A DNA stretch of 64,000 nucleotides from an uncultured virus (IMG/VR IMGVR_UViG_3300033121_001607) (Duplodnaviria > Heunggongvirae > Uroviricota > Caudoviricetes). The notes under the pieces are model-generated. The model saw only the letters and a list, made by a program, of their open reading frames with translations, was not told the origin of the DNA and did no database searches. Positions 2,732 through 13,284 of the stretch are shown one piece after another (position 1 is the first letter of the stretch; each line of letters starts with the position of its first letter). The stretch lies in IMG/VR virus record IMGVR_UViG_3300033121_001607, one strand, 5' to 3'. Position numbers and translations under genes: made by a program.

Positions 2732-3580
2732 TCAACTAATCCTATTTTCTTCAACAGTATTTACCGTCTTTTTATTTTCCTCAATCCTTTTAGACCTTGG
2801 AATGTAATCGTCAAATATGTTAGAAACCGAAGATATTCTTTGCCTTGCATAAACAACATCGGATTCTGAGTTATCAATTCCAATATAGTTTCGACCAAGA
2901 ACTTTAGCCATTAACCCTGTTGTACCAGTCCCCATAAACGGATCGACAACCGTATTTCCTCTATAAGAAAATAACTTGATAACTCTCTTTGCTAACTCTT
3001 CAGGAAATGGCGCTGGATGCCCATTTAGATTTTGAGTTTCTGGCTGAATAAACCATGTAGAAAAAGTCCAGTTTTGGAATTCTTCATTTGTCATATCAGA
3101 AAGCTCGGGGTCTCCCTCAAGCTTCCAACTACCCTTAGACCAAACCATGATATACTCATGATTTCTTCTAATAGCTGGATTAGAACAAGACATATAAGAA
3201 CCAAAAGCAGTTGCCCTACCTGACCAGTTTTGCTTATACCAGCAAATCTCGGTTCTATACTTAAGACCTATTTCTCTACCTATATTAATCAAGTCTCCCG
3301 CAATGGGTCTCATATATTCTTCGTCGTCTTGTCTATTTCTAACCGAATCAATGTTGATTACAAGTCGCCCGCCGTCAACAAGTATTCTCTTGCATTCGAC
3401 AAATATCTTCTTTAGCCAATCAACATACACTTTATATGGATCGTCATCATTACGATTGCGATATCCTTCAAGCTGAATATTGTAAGGTGGAGAAGATAAA
3501 ACAAGATGAACACTCTCGTCAGGTATTTTTTTAAGACCGTCCAAAACATCGTCCAACATAATTGTGTTCAACAAACTCAT
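2732..3580 (-). CDS. DNA methyltransferase, N4-C/N6-A family, beta order (SPPY, probably m4C)
   Basis: Catalytic SSPPY near the N-terminus, then HPAPFPEEL and the SAM-binding motif VVDPFMGTGTT near the C-terminus. Confidence 0.92.
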   Translation of the reverse strand: MSLLNTIMLDDVLDGLKKIPDESVHLVLSSPPYNIQLEGYRNRNDDDPYKVYVDWLKKIFVECKRILVDGGRLVINIDSVRNRQDDEEYMRPIAGDLINIGREIGLKYRTEICWYKQNWSGRATAFGSYMSCSNPAIRRNHEYIMVWSKGSWKLEGDPELSDMTNEEFQNWTFSTWFIQPETQNLNGHPAPFPEELAKRVIKLFSYRGNTVVDPFMGTGTTGLMAKVLGRNYIGIDNSESDVVYARQRISSVSNIFDDYIPRSKRIEENKKTVNTVEENRIS

Positions 3581-3582
3581 GA

Positions 3583-4341
3583 TTACTCCGAGAATATATC
3601 TTTTACTACGTCTAGTCTTTGTTTTGCTAAAGCGATTGCTTCAGTGCTTTTATCGCTTCCAACAGGAAACCTCTTAGCCGCTAACGCTGCTTCTAAAAAA
3701 CTACCGCTACCGCAAAACGGATCTAAAACTCTGTCTCCAGGATTACTCCATATGGAAACCACTCTTTCCATAAGTTTAAGAGGCTTTTGAGTTGCATAGC
3801 CATTCTTTTCGGGCTCATTCCTGCATATGGCAGGAATATCAACCCACCAATCCTCAAGCAACTTACCCCTTTGCTCATAATGTTCCCAAGGGATTTTCTC
3901 TTTTGACCAAGCAGCGGCTCCGCCAACATTCATTTTTGTTTTGTAAGGAACTCTCGGTTGATTAAATGCATATTCTCCAAGACCGTACCATAAGATCGTA
4001 TGGTGCTTCCTAGGGAGCCATCTTTTAGCGCTTGCAGGGTTACTAAAACCCCATATGATTTCGTTCCTGAAATTATCCCTTCCAAAAATCTTGTCCATTG
4101 AAACTTTGACATAATGTATCGCTTTGTAATCCATATGAACTACAATATTTGAGTCCTTCTTCATTAGCTTCTTGATAGCATCTAGCCTATCAGTCATATA
4201 AGAAACAAACTCGTCGAAAGACGAACCAACTCCATAGTATTCGTCTTCAGATTCACAGCTATAAGGAGGATCTAGATACACTAAATCAACAGGCTCCGTT
4301 ACCAGCCCAAGACAATCGGTATTATGAAGCTCATATTTCAT
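3583..4341 (-). CDS. DNA methyltransferase, N6-A/N4-C family, beta order (DPPY)
   Basis: VDLVYLDPPY, FRNEIIW, YATQKPLKLMER and VLDPFCGSGS. Confidence 0.92.
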   Translation of the reverse strand: MKYELHNTDCLGLVTEPVDLVYLDPPYSCESEDEYYGVGSSFDEFVSYMTDRLDAIKKLMKKDSNIVVHMDYKAIHYVKVSMDKIFGRDNFRNEIIWGFSNPASAKRWLPRKHHTILWYGLGEYAFNQPRVPYKTKMNVGGAAAWSKEKIPWEHYEQRGKLLEDWWVDIPAICRNEPEKNGYATQKPLKLMERVVSIWSNPGDRVLDPFCGSGSFLEAALAAKRFPVGSDKSTEAIALAKQRLDVVKDIFSE

Positions 4342-7452: not shown

Positions 7453-8778
7453 TCAGCAAGCGCAAAGGATATTATTCAAAAAGATACCACAACTATCGTC
7501 GCACGTTATTGTAAACGTCTTTTCAACTGTAGTGGATTTTATGTTGCGGACTTTGATTCCAACAACAGAAGATTCAACAAGCTTTGATAGAGAAGAACTT
7601 TTGCTTTTCTTTTTAATATACTTGTTCAAATAAGTAGCCATATCATGATTCATAACAACATCGTCTTGTTCAAAAAGAGCAAGCTTCTCATACTTTTCAG
7701 CAGCCATGCCAATTTCTTCCTTGATATTTGAAAGAGATTTACCAAACTTATAACCCAAAAGATCAAAAGCAAAAATATGCTTATTTGTAAGTTTTGTCAT
7801 GAAATCATTAATTTTTATAGCAAGAGATTTGATTAAATAAGGTATAAAAGTGAAAAACGCTTCAATATGACCGCTATCAATAATTATGTAAGAAGAACCG
7901 GATTCAAAAGGCACTATTCCCATGATAAGCAAGCATTTGCAAAGTCTATCAGAAGAAACTTCACCGCCGCGATGTAGAGAAATACAAGGCTTACTATTCT
8001 CTTTGTCAATGAAACCAAAAGCATTGCTTGCATGAAAATATCCGGCAAGATAGTATGCTATAATCTCTTTATTTTGAGAAGCAACTTCTTTCAAGAAAGA
8101 ATCAATCAACATAGCAACAACTTTGTTTTTAGCCCTAACTAAATCCCCGACAATCTCTGGTTCAACAAGAAAATTTGAAGACATAAGATGAGCGAATATA
8201 TTATTCACAATCTCATTGTTAGTGCTAAAAAGGATATCACCATTCTCAAGATTATAGGTTCCTTTGCAATCAATAAGACCGGAAATAAATGCTAATCCAG
8301 TTATAAAGCTAATAGACATAGAAGCGTCTGCCTCATGAATCTTGCCTCCAACTCTTTGCTTTATAAGAGAGCCTTTCTTTTTCTTTGGAAAGACTTTTTC
8401 AATCTGGAAATTGCTCTCTCGAAAAGAAAGGAATTTCGGCATTAAAAGCAAATCCTCAGCAACAAGTTCGTCAACAGAAACCTTATTCAACTCTCCATTT
8501 TCATTGACATAAATCATGCAATCCTTGCGCAGTTCAAGGAAAGAACCAAAGCTCTGTATTCTTAATAACTTTGAAGGTTTCGTTTCAACACAAGACTGAA
8601 TTCGAACAGTCTTTGATTGCCAAGTCTCTTGATCAAAACCGACTACTTGTAAACTGCCATTTTTAAGAATATTTGGCAACTCGGAAACTCGATAACTGTT
8701 TCCATAGACATCGTGCAGAAAAGATTTCCCGCCAACGCCTACAATACTAGAGCTTATCTTGACTTGGCCTTTCGACAT
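7453..8778 (-). CDS. Free-standing, degenerate intein-like protein (HINT plus two LAGLIDADG motifs), no exteins
   Basis: N-terminal HINT-like region (GVGGKSFL...LQVVGFD...LLRIQ...SVDELVAEDLLLMPK), LAGLIDADG-like FISGLIDCKG and YLAGYFHASN, block-H-like LLIMGIVP, and a C-terminal block F/G-like KTFTITCDDSCGIFLNNILCAC followed by the stop. Confidence 0.8.
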   Translation of the reverse strand: MSKGQVKISSSIVGVGGKSFLHDVYGNSYRVSELPNILKNGSLQVVGFDQETWQSKTVRIQSCVETKPSKLLRIQSFGSFLELRKDCMIYVNENGELNKVSVDELVAEDLLLMPKFLSFRESNFQIEKVFPKKKKGSLIKQRVGGKIHEADASMSISFITGLAFISGLIDCKGTYNLENGDILFSTNNEIVNNIFAHLMSSNFLVEPEIVGDLVRAKNKVVAMLIDSFLKEVASQNKEIIAYYLAGYFHASNAFGFIDKENSKPCISLHRGGEVSSDRLCKCLLIMGIVPFESGSSYIIIDSGHIEAFFTFIPYLIKSLAIKINDFMTKLTNKHIFAFDLLGYKFGKSLSNIKEEIGMAAEKYEKLALFEQDDVVMNHDMATYLNKYIKKKSKSSSLSKLVESSVVGIKVRNIKSTTVEKTFTITCDDSCGIFLNNILCAC

Positions 8779-9283
8779 GAGCGTGTTCTCTTAGTGGTTT
8801 GAGTATTACAAAAACAATATTATCTGAAACCTTTAATTCGTCCCATTTTGCAACATCTCCAAGATCAGACACAGCCTTATTGAGAAGTTCTTTTGCATTC
8901 ACAATAAATGCATTCTCTCTTCCCTTTAATTCTATTCCAAATTTAACAAAACATTTCTTTTCTAGCATGGCTCTAATTTTTGTCTTTTTCACTTGAATAT
9001 CATGCTCTCCAGTTTTCAAGTGAAACATCATTTCTTTTGTTTCAATAGGCTTATTGTTGCTTTTTTTCTTTGAGGCTTCAAACTTAAGTTTACCAGCATC
9101 TGCGAATTTACAAATAGGGATACCCTTGTTATCTTTAGAAACCTGAACAAGATCAAAACCTTGTTCCTTCGCTTGGGAAATCGCAGATTTTTTATTAATT
9201 TCCCCCTTGCTAACTCCGTTCTCGTCAATAACAATTACAGAATAGCCATAAATCTCTTCGTTCACAAACATTCTGCCAATCAC
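8747..9283 (-). CDS. infC: Translation initiation factor IF-3
   Basis: VNEEI...VIDENG...AKEQGFDLVQVS...PICKFADAGKLKFE...KEMMF...GEHDIQVK...LKGRE covers both IF3 domains. The SD TAAGGAG is followed by CTT ATT GTG ATT, pointing to a non-AUG start. Confidence 0.92.
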   Translation of the reverse strand: MIGRMFVNEEIYGYSVIVIDENGVSKGEINKKSAISQAKEQGFDLVQVSKDNKGIPICKFADAGKLKFEASKKKSNNKPIETKEMMFHLKTGEHDIQVKKTKIRAMLEKKCFVKFGIELKGRENAFIVNAKELLNKAVSDLGDVAKWDELKVSDNIVFVILKPLREHAHVERPSQDKL

Positions 9284-9293
9284 AATAAGCTCC

Positions 9294-10163
9294 TTAATTC
9301 CTCAAAACGAAAGATATCTCGTTTATCGCTAAACTACTCAATAATGCATCCAATTGTGGATCATAATATTTTTCTGTATACGGAGACATCTTTTTTGTTA
9401 TATCTTTGATTCGATCAATAAATGCCGGTCCTGATTTTGCCGCGTCTTGATAAAAGCTTCGTATTACATCTGCGCTTTCTTTAGAAGATAAGCCTTTATT
9501 TGAAAGCAACCATGAAAAGCAAAAAACAATTCCATAGTTCATAAGAAATGCAACACCGCCAGAGTTATAATACTCTTCAATTTTTGATAGGTCAACTTTG
9601 TTTCCAAGAGCAACAGCTTGTACTTCTTTGTGTTTATTAAGACTTACAAACTTTTGCGAAGCTCTACGAGAACAAAAATCATACAAATCAAAATTCTCAA
9701 CATTCAATTCTTCTTCAACAAACCACTCTATGTATGTTTTTACTATTGAGTTTGACGGAGGGGCAGCTAGTCTTCTTTCAAGCTCTTCTTTGATTCGCTT
9801 TGTAAAACGAGCATGAATCGCCGGACCAATCGTAAGGGAAATTTTATCTCCAAGTCGCTTATCTTTCTTTACACAAAGATATCGAAGATAATTAAACATT
9901 GCTTTATCAGACCAAAGATCTGGATGAATAGTGTTAAAACCCTTTGAAGCCTTTATATCTTTCCATTTACAAACACCAGTTTTTTGTCCATTAGTTTTCT
10001 TGATAGAGGTTGGCCCGTCTACGATTTCAAGTTCGTCCTCTCCAATAATGTCAAGAAGACTATTTTTCTTCTTAGCTTTAGGACTGATTCCCTTATTGGC
10101 ATCTTTTTGACTTTGCGCAAGGATATCGCCCATAAAGTCTTTCGTTTCCGTTTCCGTTTGCAT
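9294..10163 (-). CDS. Hypothetical basic protein in the replication block
   Basis: Long ORF. The SD AGAGGT lies 7 nt before ATG 10163 (MQTETET), so the start was moved from 10196. Confidence 0.75.
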   Translation of the reverse strand: MQTETETKDFMGDILAQSQKDANKGISPKAKKKNSLLDIIGEDELEIVDGPTSIKKTNGQKTGVCKWKDIKASKGFNTIHPDLWSDKAMFNYLRYLCVKKDKRLGDKISLTIGPAIHARFTKRIKEELERRLAAPPSNSIVKTYIEWFVEEELNVENFDLYDFCSRRASQKFVSLNKHKEVQAVALGNKVDLSKIEEYYNSGGVAFLMNYGIVFCFSWLLSNKGLSSKESADVIRSFYQDAAKSGPAFIDRIKDITKKMSPYTEKYYDPQLDALLSSLAINEISFVLRN

Positions 10164-10167
10164 TTTC

Positions 10168-11286
10168 TTACCTCTTTTGGGCATTATTCTGACCAATAAT
10201 CAAGTATTCTACGCCTGATGAATTCTCGGCTGAACGATACTTATAATCATACTGCATCGTCTTAACTATTACGCTTTTTCTAAACTCACCTACTAACTCT
10301 TTAATCGTCTCAATTTCAGCCCAACTACTATCGTTGTAACTAATTGCTAAAATTGCATTTGGATCTAGACTATCTAACAACTGCCAAAAATGATCCTTAT
10401 AAGTTTTGGCTTTTGAAAAAGACTTTGAAGCCGCTTTTAGATATTTAATATCTTCGAAAGATTTTCTAGCTAAGTATTCTTCTAAAAACTGATACATGAA
10501 AGCATAATCGCTTTGCTGTCCGCCATATGGAGGATCAATATAAATAAGATCAAAACTGCGACCAACCATTTTACAAAAATCAAAAACATCATTATTAAAG
10601 AACATCGACGGAGGCCCTTCGCAAGGAAAATAAGAAGGCTTCATTGCCTGAAAATTCATTTCGCTATTATTGTTTCTCTGATGCTGCAAACGATGTTCAA
10701 GAGAAGCAATAATCTGCCCACTATTGAGCCGGCCGCCAACAAAACAATGAGACATAATAAATTGCATCATTGTTGAATGAGCAACACAAGCCCTAACATG
10801 ATCATTTGCAAAGCGCTCTTCTACATTTGTAAAATAACTATCTATAAAGATCGCTTCTTTATCAGTTAAACGAGAACCCGCATGTGTCTTTTCCATAAAG
10901 GAATCAGATTTTGAGTTCTTATTAGATATCAGGAATTTCCAATCTTCGTCGGAAATCTTGTAATTCCAACCTTGAGTCAAAGAAACCCCATTCATGTAAG
11001 AAGAGCGAAGTAGCTCATTAGAGTAGACTTCTTTACCAAACTTTTTGAAAAATGCCCCAACAACGGCAGATCCAGCAAATAGATCAAGCACCGAACTAAA
11101 AGAATCAAAAGGAACTTCATTATTTAGCTCGATGGCAATATCTGCCAAGATTTTGCGCTTATTACCGACATATGGGTTGTTCAAGATATTGAAATCAGAT
11201 TGAGTATTCAAAGCCTTTTCAACGAAAAGCTCTTCTTTGGTTTCAGCAAACAGATTTCCATACTGTTCTCGATTTTTACGAGCCAT
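10168..11286 (-). CDS. DNA adenine methyltransferase (D12/Dam-like, alpha order)
   Basis: NPYVGNKRKI and VLDLFAGSAVV (motif I) near the N-terminus, then DLIYIDPPY (motif IV), ISYND and EYLII. Confidence 0.9.
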   Translation of the reverse strand: MARKNREQYGNLFAETKEELFVEKALNTQSDFNILNNPYVGNKRKILADIAIELNNEVPFDSFSSVLDLFAGSAVVGAFFKKFGKEVYSNELLRSSYMNGVSLTQGWNYKISDEDWKFLISNKNSKSDSFMEKTHAGSRLTDKEAIFIDSYFTNVEERFANDHVRACVAHSTMMQFIMSHCFVGGRLNSGQIIASLEHRLQHQRNNNSEMNFQAMKPSYFPCEGPPSMFFNNDVFDFCKMVGRSFDLIYIDPPYGGQQSDYAFMYQFLEEYLARKSFEDIKYLKAASKSFSKAKTYKDHFWQLLDSLDPNAILAISYNDSSWAEIETIKELVGEFRKSVIVKTMQYDYKYRSAENSSGVEYLIIGQNNAQKR

Positions 11287-12822: not shown

Positions 12823-13043
12823 AACATTCCTGATTCGTTGGGTTTTGCGTCAGGCGAATCTACGCCAAGTTGGTAAATCTTGCTCGAAGGAAGTTTGTTC
12901 TTTCTCTTCAACTTATCTTCGATACGGTCAGGCTTGTCAAAAAGAGAAGACTGTCCAGAATCGTTTTCATCTGGAAAGGAGCCTGGCTGTCTCTTAAAAT
13001 CCGAAGACAGCTTTTGAAAACTATTTGTTTGGATTACTTTCAA
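12819..13043 (-). CDS. Small hypothetical protein
   Basis: 74 aa, TTG start with an AAAGGT SD; 4-nt overlap with the helicase start. Confidence 0.6.
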   Translation of the reverse strand: MKVIQTNSFQKLSSDFKRQPGSFPDENDSGQSSLFDKPDRIEDKLKRKNKLPSSKIYQLGVDSPDAKPNESGML

Positions 13044-13272
13044 CGTTAATACCTTTCGCCATCAAATACTGCAATCGCTCTCCTGCAACTGCCCAAAGGT
13101 TGTTAATGCTTTCTTTCGTTCCTGTAATCCTATAAAAAGCATCAATAAAATGACCGTTCCTCATTAGAGGCAAAGTATTCTCAAGATTTGAGTTTTGCTT
13201 TTGCATGGTAGCTACAACTTTTTTAAGGAATTCTATCTCTGACAAATCATTGTAATTTATTTCTTCAGGCAT
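13021..13272 (-). CDS. Small hypothetical helical protein
   Basis: 83 aa with a GGAG SD; co-directional with its neighbours. Confidence 0.7.
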   Translation of the reverse strand: MPEEINYNDLSEIEFLKKVVATMQKQNSNLENTLPLMRNGHFIDAFYRITGTKESINNLWAVAGERLQYLMAKGINVESNPNK

Positions 13273-13284
13273 AATTCTTCTCCA

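Follow-up and report, generated by a model that had tools for sequence, protein, structure and literature searches.

An apparently virus-specific IF3 paralogue in a huge-phage clade, with replacements at codon- and tRNA-inspecting residues

A 64,000-nucleotide stretch of viral DNA (hereafter the window) encodes, on the minus strand at 8747..9283, a two-domain infC-like product that, judged by its sequence relationships, is a virus-specific IF3 paralogue in the replication-gene module of a huge-phage clade found on contigs of 100-500 kb. In bacteria, the choice of start site and of initiator tRNA is policed chiefly by IF3. The clade appears to offer a form of it, natural and maintained by selection, that has kept its ribosome-binding core but has every inspecting side chain replaced at once. 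The favoured reading, plausible and given a probability of about 45%, is a functional paralogue whose inspection of codon and initiator tRNA would be relaxed or re-specified.

Identity and fold of the phage protein

The initial annotation had called 8747..9283 a phage IF3, and profile searches bear this out. The ORF starts with GTG and specifies 178 aa; its product scores 94.7 bits against the NCBIfam infC model TIGR00168 (cut-off 60) and hits PHROG 9787, annotated 'translation initiation factor', at 1.7e-20. Both Pfam domains exceed their cut-offs: IF3_N (PF05198) covers residues 7-75 (9059..9265, minus strand; E 4.1e-16, 59.3 bits, cut-off 26.9) and IF3_C (PF00707), the 30S-binding domain, covers residues 80-163 (8795..9046, minus strand; E 9.1e-14, 51.6 bits, cut-off 34.8). 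Around residues 70-81 lies the interdomain linker (9041..9076, minus strand), marked by a gap of 4 residues in the HMMER alignment. The C-terminal tail, residues 164-178 (8747..8794, minus strand), is predicted to be disordered, with pLDDT below 50 for 167-178, and the last 32 nt of the gene (8747-8778) overlap the start of the next one.

An AF2 model of the protein has a mean pLDDT of 83.2, with both domains at about 90 and the linker at 56. Its best Foldseek match is T. thermophilus IF3 (5lmn_X, TM 0.75/0.79); taken singly, the N-terminal domain matches 1tif (TMt 0.82, rmsd 1.6) and the C-terminal domain 1tig (TMt 0.88, rmsd 1.6). Model and matches together show the two alpha/beta domains and linker of IF3 architecture.

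The core of the C-terminal domain is retained. D95 and K99 correspond to E. coli D106 and K110, which are described as residues for 30S binding (PMC3401457, PMC7145577), a K110L IF3 being reported to fail in it (PMC7145577). Both are invariant in alignment A1, which omits the partial P0011, P0028 with its internal deletion and P0029, a fragment of 144 aa. G121-R122-E123, equivalent to E. coli G132-R133-E134, is likewise kept.

Clade membership, genomic context and selection

About 29 close relatives share 60-99% identity with the window IF3, and they lie on IMG/VR viral contigs of 101-494 kb; for P0001, whose IF3 is 99% identical, the longest contig listed is 141 kb. Clustered at 50% identity, the clade forms a single group at 317 bits, and the next group of full-length proteins scores 184 bits (a 186-aa fragment that belongs to the clade itself scores 236 bits). 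It is monophyletic with support of 0.99 and nested among IF3s that do not carry R25, one of them encoded on a viral contig of 488 kb. In the three nearest ESM Atlas clusters, Viruses make up 47-70%. Against TIGR00168 the window protein reaches 94.7 bits, compared with 179-244 in 61 of 61 Spirochaetota genomes and 285 for E. coli.

Genomic neighbourhood analysis provides further evidence. The gene order helicase, Dam methylase, orf300, IF3, orf441, loader and DnaB recurs in all five relatives compared. Directly upstream of IF3 in each of them is orf300 (9294..10196, minus strand; 29-89% identity), a gene without functional assignment that gave no match to Pfam or PHROG. Downstream, orf441 (7453..8778, minus strand; 36-82% identity, 5/5 relatives) has only sub-threshold matches to Intein_splicing (16.8 bits, cut-off 35.8), LAGLIDADG_3 (E 0.14) and PI-PkoII (E 0.21). 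No L35 or L20 gene of an infC-rpmI-rplT context was found in the flanks within the window, where phage replication genes stand instead. In the five relatives no L20 gene was found next to IF3, and rpmI/rplT lie near only 2 of 80 viral IF3 loci (L069, L087); L20 is nearby in 29 of 30 Spirochaetota infC loci.

Translation signals are also shared. The GTG start codon (9281..9283, minus strand) occupies the same place in the window and at loci L003, L006, L004/L005 and L007; the ATG at codon 5 of the window gene is absent from L003 and L006. A Shine-Dalgarno sequence, AAGGAG (9290..9295, minus strand), stands 6 nt before the GTG and overlaps the TAA stop of orf300 (9294-9296), and (A/G)AGGAG lies 6-7 nt upstream of the IF3 start in 5/5 relatives. 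An SD-like 5-mer precedes 9 of the 32 genes in the window, this one included. The AUU start of E. coli infC serves autoregulation of IF3. The first codon of that gene is ATT in NC_000913.3; an AUU-type start, typical of cellular infC, was not found for the phage gene, where the nearby ATT is only 3 nt from the Shine-Dalgarno sequence.

Between the window IF3 and its relatives, dN/dS is 0.056-0.157 (8 of 10 pairs with estimable dS), a range that indicates strong purifying selection. Host infC on a misassembled contig, a gene-calling error or a decaying pseudogene can be given next to no credence as explanations: the artefact reading is refuted by the missing rpmI/rplT genes, the replication-gene flanks and synteny on 5 viral contigs, and decay by an intact frame with dN/dS of 0.06-0.16. 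Relatives, dN/dS, synteny and the conserved GTG and Shine-Dalgarno sequence all mark the window gene, at the sequence level, as a functional IF3 homologue.

Contigs from four metatranscriptomic runs of one study span orf441, IF3 and orf300. They cover all 30 bins evenly and carry no transcript ends, strand or level; since DNA carry-over is possible and the cover is even, they do not prove transcription. The window helicase has only weak matches among cultured phages, to Akkermansia phages at 28% identity, and a scan of the genome collection for a host gave one partial, unrelated match (G001).

Substitutions at residues that inspect codon and tRNA

By phmmer against the PDB, window residues 7-163 aligned to residues 15-176 of E. 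coli IF3 (8jsg_A) interrupted by a single gap of 4 residues in the linker; infC of NC_000913.3 served to check the E. coli numbering. The initial annotation had listed R25I, Y70A, Y75F, R99-P100 to HL, Y107I, R131K and a linker about 4 aa shorter, and these seven items are real, because the HMMER alignment to E. coli IF3 reproduces each. In the N-terminal domain R25 becomes I17, Y70 becomes A63 and Y75 becomes F68 (DAGKLKFE against E. coli DYGKFLYE), with S25 and K59 at the positions of Q33 and R66; in the C-terminal domain R99-P100 becomes H88-L89, Y107 becomes I96 and R131 becomes K120. From K72 to E95 the linker measures 19 residues against 23 in E. coli. Further changes had not been listed: R20 to Y, R112 to T, R116 to A, R129 to E118, F130 to L119 and G167-R168 to D154-N155. 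The RFRGR motif (129-133) thereby reads ELKGR (118-122) in the window and E/Q, L, K, G, R across the clade.

These states are held in common. The clade (n=29) has I or V at position 25 (I in 20/29, V in 8/29), A, V, L or I at 70, H at 99, L or I at 100, E or Q at 129, K at 131 and N, D or T at 168. Fixation across 29 members argues, on the alignments, that the substitutions are not random decay.

Several of the positions have published roles. R25 is described as invariant in its authors' alignment and as contacting the tRNA elbow, and R25A IF3 as not restoring discrimination of start codon or of the three G:C pairs (3GC) of the initiator (PMC9723500). R131 is reported to contact mRNA positions +2, +3 and +4 within an RFRGR motif highly conserved in bacteria; exchanging this motif for the mitochondrial KKGK in E. 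coli IF3 relaxed discrimination against non-AUG codons and relieved inhibition of leaderless mRNA, and in mycoplasma IF3s residue 131 is P, F or Y (PMC11775629). In T. thermophilus IF3, Arg91 is described as hydrogen-bonding A+1, Arg123 as contacting U+2 and +4, and the hairpin residue Arg159 as adjoining the anticodon stem-loop (PMC5037330). By alignment, Arg91 and Arg123 are E. coli R99 and R131; the numbering offset suggests that Arg159 is R168.

A working mechanism can be proposed on this basis. The phage IF3 would bind the host 30S at platform and P site as host IF3 does, and would supply anti-association and initiation-complex functions during infection. In solved complexes, the side chains at the replaced positions touch the tRNA elbow (R25, here I), the start codon together with the +4 base (R99 and R131, here H and K) and the anticodon stem-loop (R168, here N). 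Since the contacting side chains are replaced, inspection of codon and initiator tRNA would most likely be less stringent or differently specific, and phage messages or a phage tRNA would thereby be favoured at initiation. Contacts may also have been rebuilt, given that R131K and Y75F are conservative and that a lysine, K90, has newly appeared next to H88-L89.

The same pattern of loss and retention could serve a different end. A protein that binds the 30S and displaces host IF3, but cannot itself properly inspect tRNA and codon or leave in time, would remodel or throttle host translation or block an IF3-dependent process such as release of RbfA from new 30S subunits. This is improbable, although the 30S-binding residues are conserved and the tRNA- and mRNA-facing arginines lost, and although the strong Shine-Dalgarno sequence and the position in the replication module would allow high, possibly early, expression. 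IF3 is reported to release RbfA from the 30S, with Y75N defective in release (PMC7145577). A pure inhibitor needs no intact N-terminal domain and linker, yet the N-terminal domain has a modelled pLDDT of about 90 and equals the C-terminal one in conservation, and the phage itself relies on good initiation by host ribosomes.

Single changes are common, their combination is not

Taken one at a time, many of the changes are unremarkable. F75 occurs in 27/30 Spirochaetota IF3s, in 37 of 64 rplT-adjacent metagenomic infC genes and in 5me0_Y, a Geobacillus-type IF3 with F75, S99, F107 and K131 whose N-terminal domain has the same sequence as 1TIF, the fragment from B. stearothermophilus. The Y107 of E. 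coli is itself a minority state: of 149 representatives, 67 have L at this position and 26 have I. K131 is present in 5/30 Spirochaetota and 5me0_Y, and position 99 is non-Arg in 12/30 Spirochaetota (Arg itself being absent in 14/30) and in 5me0_Y; L at position 25 occurs in 4/30 Spirochaetota, and V at position 100 in T. thermophilus. Y75F, Y107I, R131K and a non-Arg residue at 99 thus look, from these alignments, like ordinary variation of cellular IF3s that are presumably fully functional. The shorter linker is ordinary too, its 19 residues falling inside the natural 18-25 of 179 IF3s.

The claim of divergence at fidelity residues therefore stands in part: the positions have published fidelity roles, but 4 of the 7 changes are normal cellular variation. 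Changes at Y75, R99 and R131 had further been cited as relaxing fidelity; the published alleles are drastic (Y75N, R131P), whereas Y75F and R131K are conservative. Wild-type cellular IF3s often carry F75 and K131, which leaves position 25 as the only site that resembles a known loss-of-fidelity allele. R25 is present in 64/64 rplT-linked and 26/30 Spirochaetota IF3s, and R131 in 64/64 and 23/30.

The combination is another matter. All seven changes (25, aromatic-70, 99, 100, 129, 131 and 168) are found in 29/29 clade members, a count that includes P0011, P0028 and P0029 and scores the gaps of P0028 as changed. Elsewhere they occur together in 2/149 other representatives, in 0/76 other viral IF3 loci (maximum 6), in 0/30 Spirochaetota (maximum 3) and in 0/64 rplT-linked metagenomic infC genes (maximum 1). 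At least three of the seven are seen in 30/76 other viral IF3s against 2/94 cellular ones, so that viral IF3s in general drift likewise. The cellular baseline of 94 consists of two lineages: the 30 Spirochaetota, sampled as the phylum of the chance match G001, and the 64 rplT-linked genes, a Proteobacteria-biased sample because the best 80 loci by likeness to E. coli L20 were kept. The host's own IF3 could share the clade's residues.

These counts also bear on a plainer explanation, that the phage merely tops up IF3: a factor of normal fidelity that raises or maintains IF3 activity (supply of free 30S, fast turnover of complexes) under host shut-off or high protein demand, its substitutions being lineage drift with compensation. 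This is a serious possibility, somewhat short of even odds. It accords with the commonness of 4 of the 7 listed changes in cellular IF3s, with the retained 30S-binding core and with the many viral IF3s that are nearly canonical (28/76 other viral IF3s with 0-1 of the seven changes). It accounts less well for a seven-fold combination, including a charge reversal at 129 and loss of the hairpin Arg, that is fixed under purifying selection and absent from the 94 cellular IF3s, or for the report that in E. coli the R25A change by itself impairs fidelity (PMC9723500).

Start codons and leaderless initiation in the window

The initial annotation had cited non-ATG starts and putative leaderless replication genes in favour of a retuned factor. 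Neither argument survives. GTG and TTG are reported to be accepted as start codons by normal IF3 (PMC9723500); among the window's 32 ORFs only 3 are without an ATG alternative and no ATT start was found, so that the suggested count of non-AUG and SD-less starts reveals no excess of odd start codons. The cited start at 13043 is TTG, the first codon of a 74-aa ORF in the gap upstream of the helicase, where an overlapping 83-aa ATG ORF at 13272, with GGAG upstream, is at least as plausible.

An SD-like 4-mer precedes 18/32 window genes, compared with 13% of random positions. This four-fold enrichment is also why a Bacteroidota host, first suspected from sparse Shine-Dalgarno sequences, was dropped as unsupported. 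Sigma-70-like sites in the window are at the level of shuffled sequence (50 against 51.0 +/- 6.9), and the promoter scan found no site placed to begin a transcript at a start codon. The window genes are all co-directional and tightly packed; together with the SD enrichment and the want of a promoter excess, this means that nothing indicates leaderless mRNAs. As far as their sequences tell, the window genes show no sign of needing relaxed initiation, and such ordinary start codons and SD use again agree with a simple top-up of IF3.

Translation kit and initiator-like tRNA of the relatives

Relatives of 257-494 kb bear 41, 27 and 72 tRNA matches, the translation kit of a huge phage; no tRNA was found in the 64-kb window. 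Peptide deformylase is encoded in 4/5 relatives, and IF1 and bS21 in 0/5 (records 13-98% complete). With 27-72 tRNAs and a deformylase, the relatives can be read as carrying a general capacity kit, and huge phages are reported commonly to bear IF1 or IF3 plus tRNAs (PMC7162821), which would suit a top-up role.

Two relatives, in addition, encode an initiator-like tRNA without the full 3GC (G064 3715-3790; G066 158282-158356). It retains G30:C40, with variant 29:41 and 31:39 pairs, and keeps the formylation signals, namely a mismatch at 1:72, the conserved pairs 2:71 and 3:70 and A73 as discriminator. What the phage tRNA does not have would be the flanking G:C pairs by which host IF3 and ribosome license initiators. 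A private initiation channel can be imagined from this, in which the phage IF3, its elbow, start-codon and anticodon-stem contacts gone, has co-evolved with a phage initiator tRNA that host IF3 rejects and phage IF3 admits, ribosomes with phage IF3 preferentially starting with phage components. Given the drift of viral IF3s in general, loosened inspection may on this reading be a recurrent phage strategy; we regard the reading as rather unlikely.

Overall, the joint seven-residue change unseen in 94 cellular IF3s and the degenerate-3GC tRNA of relatives support, by comparative sequence evidence, a factor with retuned inspection. The initial proposal of retuned start-site selection keeps these two lines of support, and loses those drawn from start codons and leaderless context. 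Should the rules prove relaxed or altered, the clade would show directly that a virus can reprogramme the fidelity of translation, and would be a useful reagent for dissecting IF3 contacts and possibly a tool for non-canonical initiation in vitro. If the phage IF3 instead acts like host IF3, the 'fidelity residues' would tolerate replacement far better than one would expect from E. coli genetics.

Comparison with known systems

The window protein resembles bacterial IF3 (E. coli, the T. thermophilus 5LMN series, B. stearothermophilus 1TIF/1TIG) in the D-x-G-K end of its N-terminal domain, in D106, K110 and G132-R133-E134, in Foldseek TM values of 0.75-0.88 to solved IF3s and in exceeding the equivalog cut-off. 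It differs in its score (94.7 bits against 179-285 for cellular proteins), in the replacement of R25, Y70, R99, P100, R129, F130, R131 and R168, and in having neither the basic N-terminal tail nor the infC-rpmI-rplT operon, with a GTG start and strong Shine-Dalgarno sequence. Among the E. coli fidelity mutants infC362 (Y75N), R131P and R25A/Q33A/R66A, positions 25, 75 and 131 are also changed here, but to I, F and K rather than A, N and P.

Phage copies of IF3 have been catalogued since at least 2020 (PMC7162821), and a literature search on phage IF3 found genomic mentions only and no functional study. The IF3s described for huge and jumbo phages (PMC7162821; Rak2-like 121Q gp47; Sinorhizobium phage Phosso) are likewise stand-alone, in very large genomes with many tRNAs. 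Some other phage clades also alter positions 70, 99, 100 and 131, as 121Q (L012) does with L at 70, N at 99, F at 100 and S at 131. The window IF3 is nevertheless only 26-34% identical to any phage-collection record and forms its own 50% cluster; among the groups examined, its clade alone shows all seven changes, and R25, lost there, is retained in 121Q, in Phosso and in the phages of 636 kb and 735 kb.

Mammalian mitochondrial IF-3mt offers a parallel in its codon-facing motif, which has lost arginines there (KKGK for RFRGR, as described in PMC11775629) as in the window (ELKGR). The window protein keeps the motif length and last Arg, is without the mitochondrial type of extension at the N and C termini and, with a Foldseek TM of only 0.50-0.56, falls outside the mitochondrial lineage. 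Mycoplasmas are reported to combine an altered residue 131 with an initiator tRNA that has no full 3GC, its 29:41 and 31:39 pairs being variant, but keeps G30:C40 (PMC11775629, PMC5389676). The relatives of the window phage show this pattern too. The mycoplasma case is a cellular system in which the uS9 tail is also changed, whereas here variant tRNA and variant IF3 would both be phage-borne and might act together on host ribosomes.

Identity and genomic context of the phage IF3

The IF3 gene is an intact ORF of 178 codons on the minus strand (8747-9283) with a GTG start. Its product matches both Pfam domains, IF3_N over residues 7-75 (E 4.1e-16) and IF3_C over residues 80-163 (E 9.1e-14), as well as the PHROG 'translation initiation factor' family, and scores 94.7 bits on the NCBIfam equivalog TIGR00168 infC (cut-off 60). 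On that model, cellular IF3s score 179-244 bits in 61/61 genomes of one bacterial phylum, and the E. coli protein 285 bits. An AlphaFold2 model generated with 27 relatives as input has a mean pLDDT of 83.2; the value is near 90 in both domains and 56 in the linker, and the final 12 residues are disordered. Solved IF3s rank first in Foldseek searches with this model (T. thermophilus 5lmn_X, TM 0.75/0.79; 1TIG C-domain, TMt 0.88; 1TIF N-domain, TMt 0.82). The GTG follows an (A/G)AGGAG at a distance of 6-7 nt in the window and in 5/5 relatives; because the window's downstream ATG is absent in two relatives, GTG is fixed as the start.

A word-indexed search recovered a clade of 29 proteins 60-99% identical to the window IF3, some on contigs of up to 505 kb, and five relatives are found in IMG/VR, on viral contigs 101-494 kb long. 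All five share the gene order helicase, Dam methylase, orf300, IF3, orf441, helicase loader, DnaB, and the rest of the window carries phage replication, methylase, glycosyltransferase and giant-protein genes, on a single strand throughout. Neither rpmI nor rplT was found 3' of the window IF3, and they are present at only 2/80 other viral IF3 loci. Pairwise dN/dS is 0.056-0.157 (8/10 pairs with unsaturated dS). When 1.84 billion representatives were scanned in full with HMMER, the clade fell into a single 50% cluster (317 bits); the best full-length cluster outside it reached 184 bits, and P0011, a 186-aa fragment of the clade itself, 236 bits. A FastTree phylogeny of 287 IF3s recovers the clade (support 0.99), nested in a group of R25-less IF3s that includes one locus on a 488-kb viral contig, and viruses make up 47-70% of the three nearest clusters in the ESM Atlas. 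The window encodes a genuine phage IF3 that is under selection.

The neighboring genes have features of their own. orf300 (9294-10196, minus strand) has no family match and always lies directly 5' of IF3; its TAA stop overlaps the IF3 Shine-Dalgarno (SD) sequence, and a 6-nt deletion variant at 10143 appears in RNA-library contigs from 4/4 runs. orf441 (7453-8778, minus strand) begins 32 nt inside the 3' end of the IF3 gene and is its fixed neighbor in 5/5 relatives, at 36-82% identity. Its matches are all sub-threshold (Intein_splicing, 16.8 bits against a cut-off of 35.8; LAGLIDADG_3, E 0.14; PI-PkoII endonuclease, E 0.21); it is possibly a free-standing protein of intein or homing-endonuclease type that has become domesticated. 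The replication module has three minus-strand DNA methyltransferase genes within 9 kb of it (2732-3580, 3583-4341 and 10168-11286): two are of the N6_N4_Mtase type and the third is Dam-like, of the D12 class. A minus-strand run of giant ORFs (18312-61069; 3258, 1464, 1531, 2759 and 2382 aa), with Kelch, Laminin_G_3, fn3, Rha78A-like Ig, BNR and DUF642 domains and interspersed glycosyltransferases, probably encodes huge surface or fibre proteins.

Substitutions at tRNA- and codon-facing residues

The initial annotation proposed that changes at fidelity residues may retune start-site selection. A HMMER alignment of the window protein to E. coli IF3 (PDB 8jsg_A; E. coli sequence from infC of NC_000913.3) reproduced every listed change: R25 to I17, Y70 to A63, Y75 to F68, R99-P100 to H88-L89, Y107 to I96, R131 to K120, and a linker with a 4-residue gap (K72 to E95, 19 residues vs 23). 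Changes beyond that list are R129 to E118 and F130 to L119 (RFRGR to ELKGR), the hairpin tip G167-R168 to D154-N155, R20 to Y12, R112 to T and R116 to A. Retained are D62-x-G64-K65 (E. coli 69-72), D95 (D106), K99 (K110) and G121-R122-E123 (132-134), all invariant in the clade alignment.

Published work assigns roles to many of these positions. R25, Q33 and R66 contact the initiator-tRNA elbow, and R25 is invariant in the alignment of PMC9723500; in that study both R25A and the R25/Q33/R66 triple mutant fail to restore discrimination against AUU/AUA starts and 3GC-mutant initiator tRNA. In T. thermophilus 30S complexes, Arg91 hydrogen-bonds A+1, Arg123 is in contact with U+2 and the +4 base, hairpin Arg159 sits beside the anticodon stem-loop, and Tyr75 touches the platform (PMC5037330). 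Alignment of solved IF3s equates Arg91 and Arg123 with E. coli R99 and R131; from the numbering offset, we infer that Arg159 corresponds to R168. The RFRGR motif is termed highly conserved in PMC11775629, where substitution of the mitochondrial KKGK makes IF3 less strict against non-AUG starts and less inhibitory to leaderless mRNA, as does R131P. For ribosome binding, K110L abolishes 30S association, and Y75N still binds but disfavours the extended conformation (PMC7145577). Judged by alignment, the phage IF3 retains the predicted requirements for sitting on the 30S subunit, and the arginines reported to touch tRNA or mRNA are all replaced except R133.

Rarity of the combination

The substitutions were compared with five sets: (a) 149 other representatives from the HMMER scan, biased to clade-like sequences; (b) 76 non-redundant viral IF3 loci outside the clade, seeded from R25-less sequences and mostly found with a pattern that fixes residues 65-74; (c) 30 IF3s from the phylum of a chance match titled 'Spirochaetes bacterium', 29 with L20 nearby; (d) 64 metagenomic infC genes reached through neighboring rplT, unbiased for IF3 sequence but Proteobacteria-like; and (e) solved model proteins. 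F75 occurs in 27/30 (c), 37/64 (d) and 5me0_Y, whose N-domain is identical in our alignment to 1TIF, the B. stearothermophilus protein per PMC3401457. Position 107 in (a) is L in 67, I in 26 and Y in 23 of 149, making Y a minority state. K131 is found in 32/149 (a), 29/76 (b), 5/30 (c), 0/64 (d) and 5me0_Y; residue 99 is non-Arg in 14/30 (c) and 1/64 (d), and S in 5me0_Y; and a 19-residue linker lies inside the observed range of 18-25. Cellular IF3s often show such states, so that four of the seven listed changes, as well as the linker, carry little information, and the argument from Y75, R99, R131, Y107 and linker length is weak.

Other positions are more restricted. Residue 25 is neither R nor K in 58/149 (a), 23/76 (b), 4/30 (c) and 0/64 (d); residue 70 is non-aromatic in 10/149 (a), 0/30 (c) and 2/64 (d); residue 100 is non-Pro in 0/30 (c) and 1/64 (d), and V in T. 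thermophilus; and residue 168 is neither R nor K in 0/94 cellular IF3s. Counted jointly over positions 25, 70, 99, 100, 129, 131 and 168, all seven are changed in 29/29 clade members, 2/149 of the clade-biased set (a), 0/76 (b, maximum 6), 0/30 Spirochaetota (c, maximum 3) and 0/64 rplT-linked infC (d, maximum 1). At least three are changed in 30/76 viral IF3s vs 2/94 cellular ones, so that viral IF3s as a group appear to lean the same way as the clade, with the cellular baselines being two narrow ones and (b) seeded from R25-less sequences.

A separate case is L087, a 23.9-kb IMG/VR contig labelled 'viral', which carries a bacterial-type infC-rpmI-rplT operon. Its IF3 has H-L at 99-100, like the window's, and the pair therefore occurs in a cellular-type operon.

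Start codons and the leaderless proposal

The initial annotation also saw support in non-ATG starts and putative leaderless replication genes; the data below support neither leaderless genes nor an odd set of start codons. The first start is non-ATG in 6/32 window ORFs, and only three (IF3 GTG 9283, TTG 51140 and GTG 61069) offer no ATG within 60 codons as an alternative; the 32 include no ATT start. Normal IF3 accepts GTG and TTG. SD-like 4-mers precede 18/32 starts vs 13.3% of random positions, and SD-like 5-mers 9/32 vs 4.0%. Sigma-70-like sites number 50 vs 51.0 +/- 6.9 in shuffles, and none of those scanned is positioned to begin a transcript at a start codon. Window genes are co-directional, and many overlap or abut. 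Contigs from RNA libraries (four metatranscriptomic runs, one study), which cannot show transcript ends and may include DNA carry-over, span the whole 20-kb stretch, and X1 (7707-10360) and X2 (7486-10553) bridge orf441, IF3 and orf300. An ordinary IF3 top-up, for which a normal start repertoire and a conserved ribosome-binding scaffold would be unremarkable, is a plausible rival explanation, ranked below altered inspection in view of the clade-fixed residue losses.

In the gap upstream of the helicase (12823-13284, minus strand) lie two overlapping small candidate ORFs, one of 83 aa from ATG 13272 with a 5' GGAG and one of 74 aa from TTG 13043, the start chosen in the initial annotation.

Candidate initiator tRNAs in the relatives

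A tRNA search of the 64-kb window found none; the 333-kb, 370-kb and 494-kb relatives gave 41, 27 and 72 matches. In the 333-kb relative, ARAGORN predicts 42 tRNAs within the first 31 kb; two of these have a CAU anticodon and one is a CUA suppressor. An initiator-like tRNA-Met(CAU) in this genome (G064, locus L153, 3715-3790, minus strand) combines a U1.U72 mismatch, G2:C71, C3:G70 and A73 with an anticodon stem of G:C at 29:41, G:C at 30:40 and U.G at 31:39. Its syntenic orthologue in the 494-kb relative (G066, locus L156, 1499-1576, plus strand) has C1.U72, G2:C71, C3:G70 and A73, with A:U, G:C and C.A at the same stem positions. The tRNA-model scores are low (37.8 and 28.6 bits, the latter below the gathering score of 29), and both D-arms are weak. 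The E. coli initiator carries G2:C71 and C3:G70 with A73.

According to PMC5389676, the formylase relies chiefly on a 1:72 mismatch combined with the 2:71 and 3:70 pairs, and the three G:C pairs that initiators carry at 29:41, 30:40 and 31:39 license the IF3-linked step. Of these, G30 is indispensable, and mycoplasmas and alpha-proteobacteria have natural variants. The clade thus appears to encode a candidate initiator-type tRNA with intact formylation signals and G30:C40, but without the G:C pairs on either side. A factor lacking R25, R131 and R168, as this IF3 does, would be expected to tolerate such a degenerate-3GC tRNA.

Peptide deformylase is present in 4/5 relatives; IF1 and bS21, searched in the five, were found in none. 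In the 333-kb relative the deformylase match (G064:C1:299564-300904) falls in two pieces on opposite strands, with a TAA inside one; the other carriers have a single intact copy of 157-166 aa. The CUA tRNA (L153, 12932-13011, minus strand), an amber suppressor labelled 'Pyl' by ARAGORN, lies inside the 42-tRNA array. TAG is rare among window stops (3/31; TAA 16, TGA 12), and no recoding is visible in the window, where all large ORFs are open under code 11.

Proposed altered inspection and comparison with known IF3s

Replacement of all the residues that face tRNA or codon is fixed in the clade, whose ribosome-binding scaffold is conserved, and relatives carry the degenerate initiator-like tRNA. 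On these sequence comparisons altered start-site and initiator inspection is the leading hypothesis, with a probability of roughly 45%. Mycoplasmas offer a cellular parallel: their residue 131 is P, F or Y, and their initiator tRNAs are variant (PMC11775629). Phage IF3 genes are already known (PMC7162821), and the clade's IF3 is a variant among them. Unlike the window protein, the IF3s of the Rak2-like jumbo phages Escherichia phage 121Q (L012) and Yersinia phage fHe-Yen9-03 (L013) retain R25; they change C65, Y70 (to L), G71 (to N), R99-P100 (to N-F or S-F) and R131 (to S or Q). They represent an independent phage clade altered at positions that overlap those of the window IF3.
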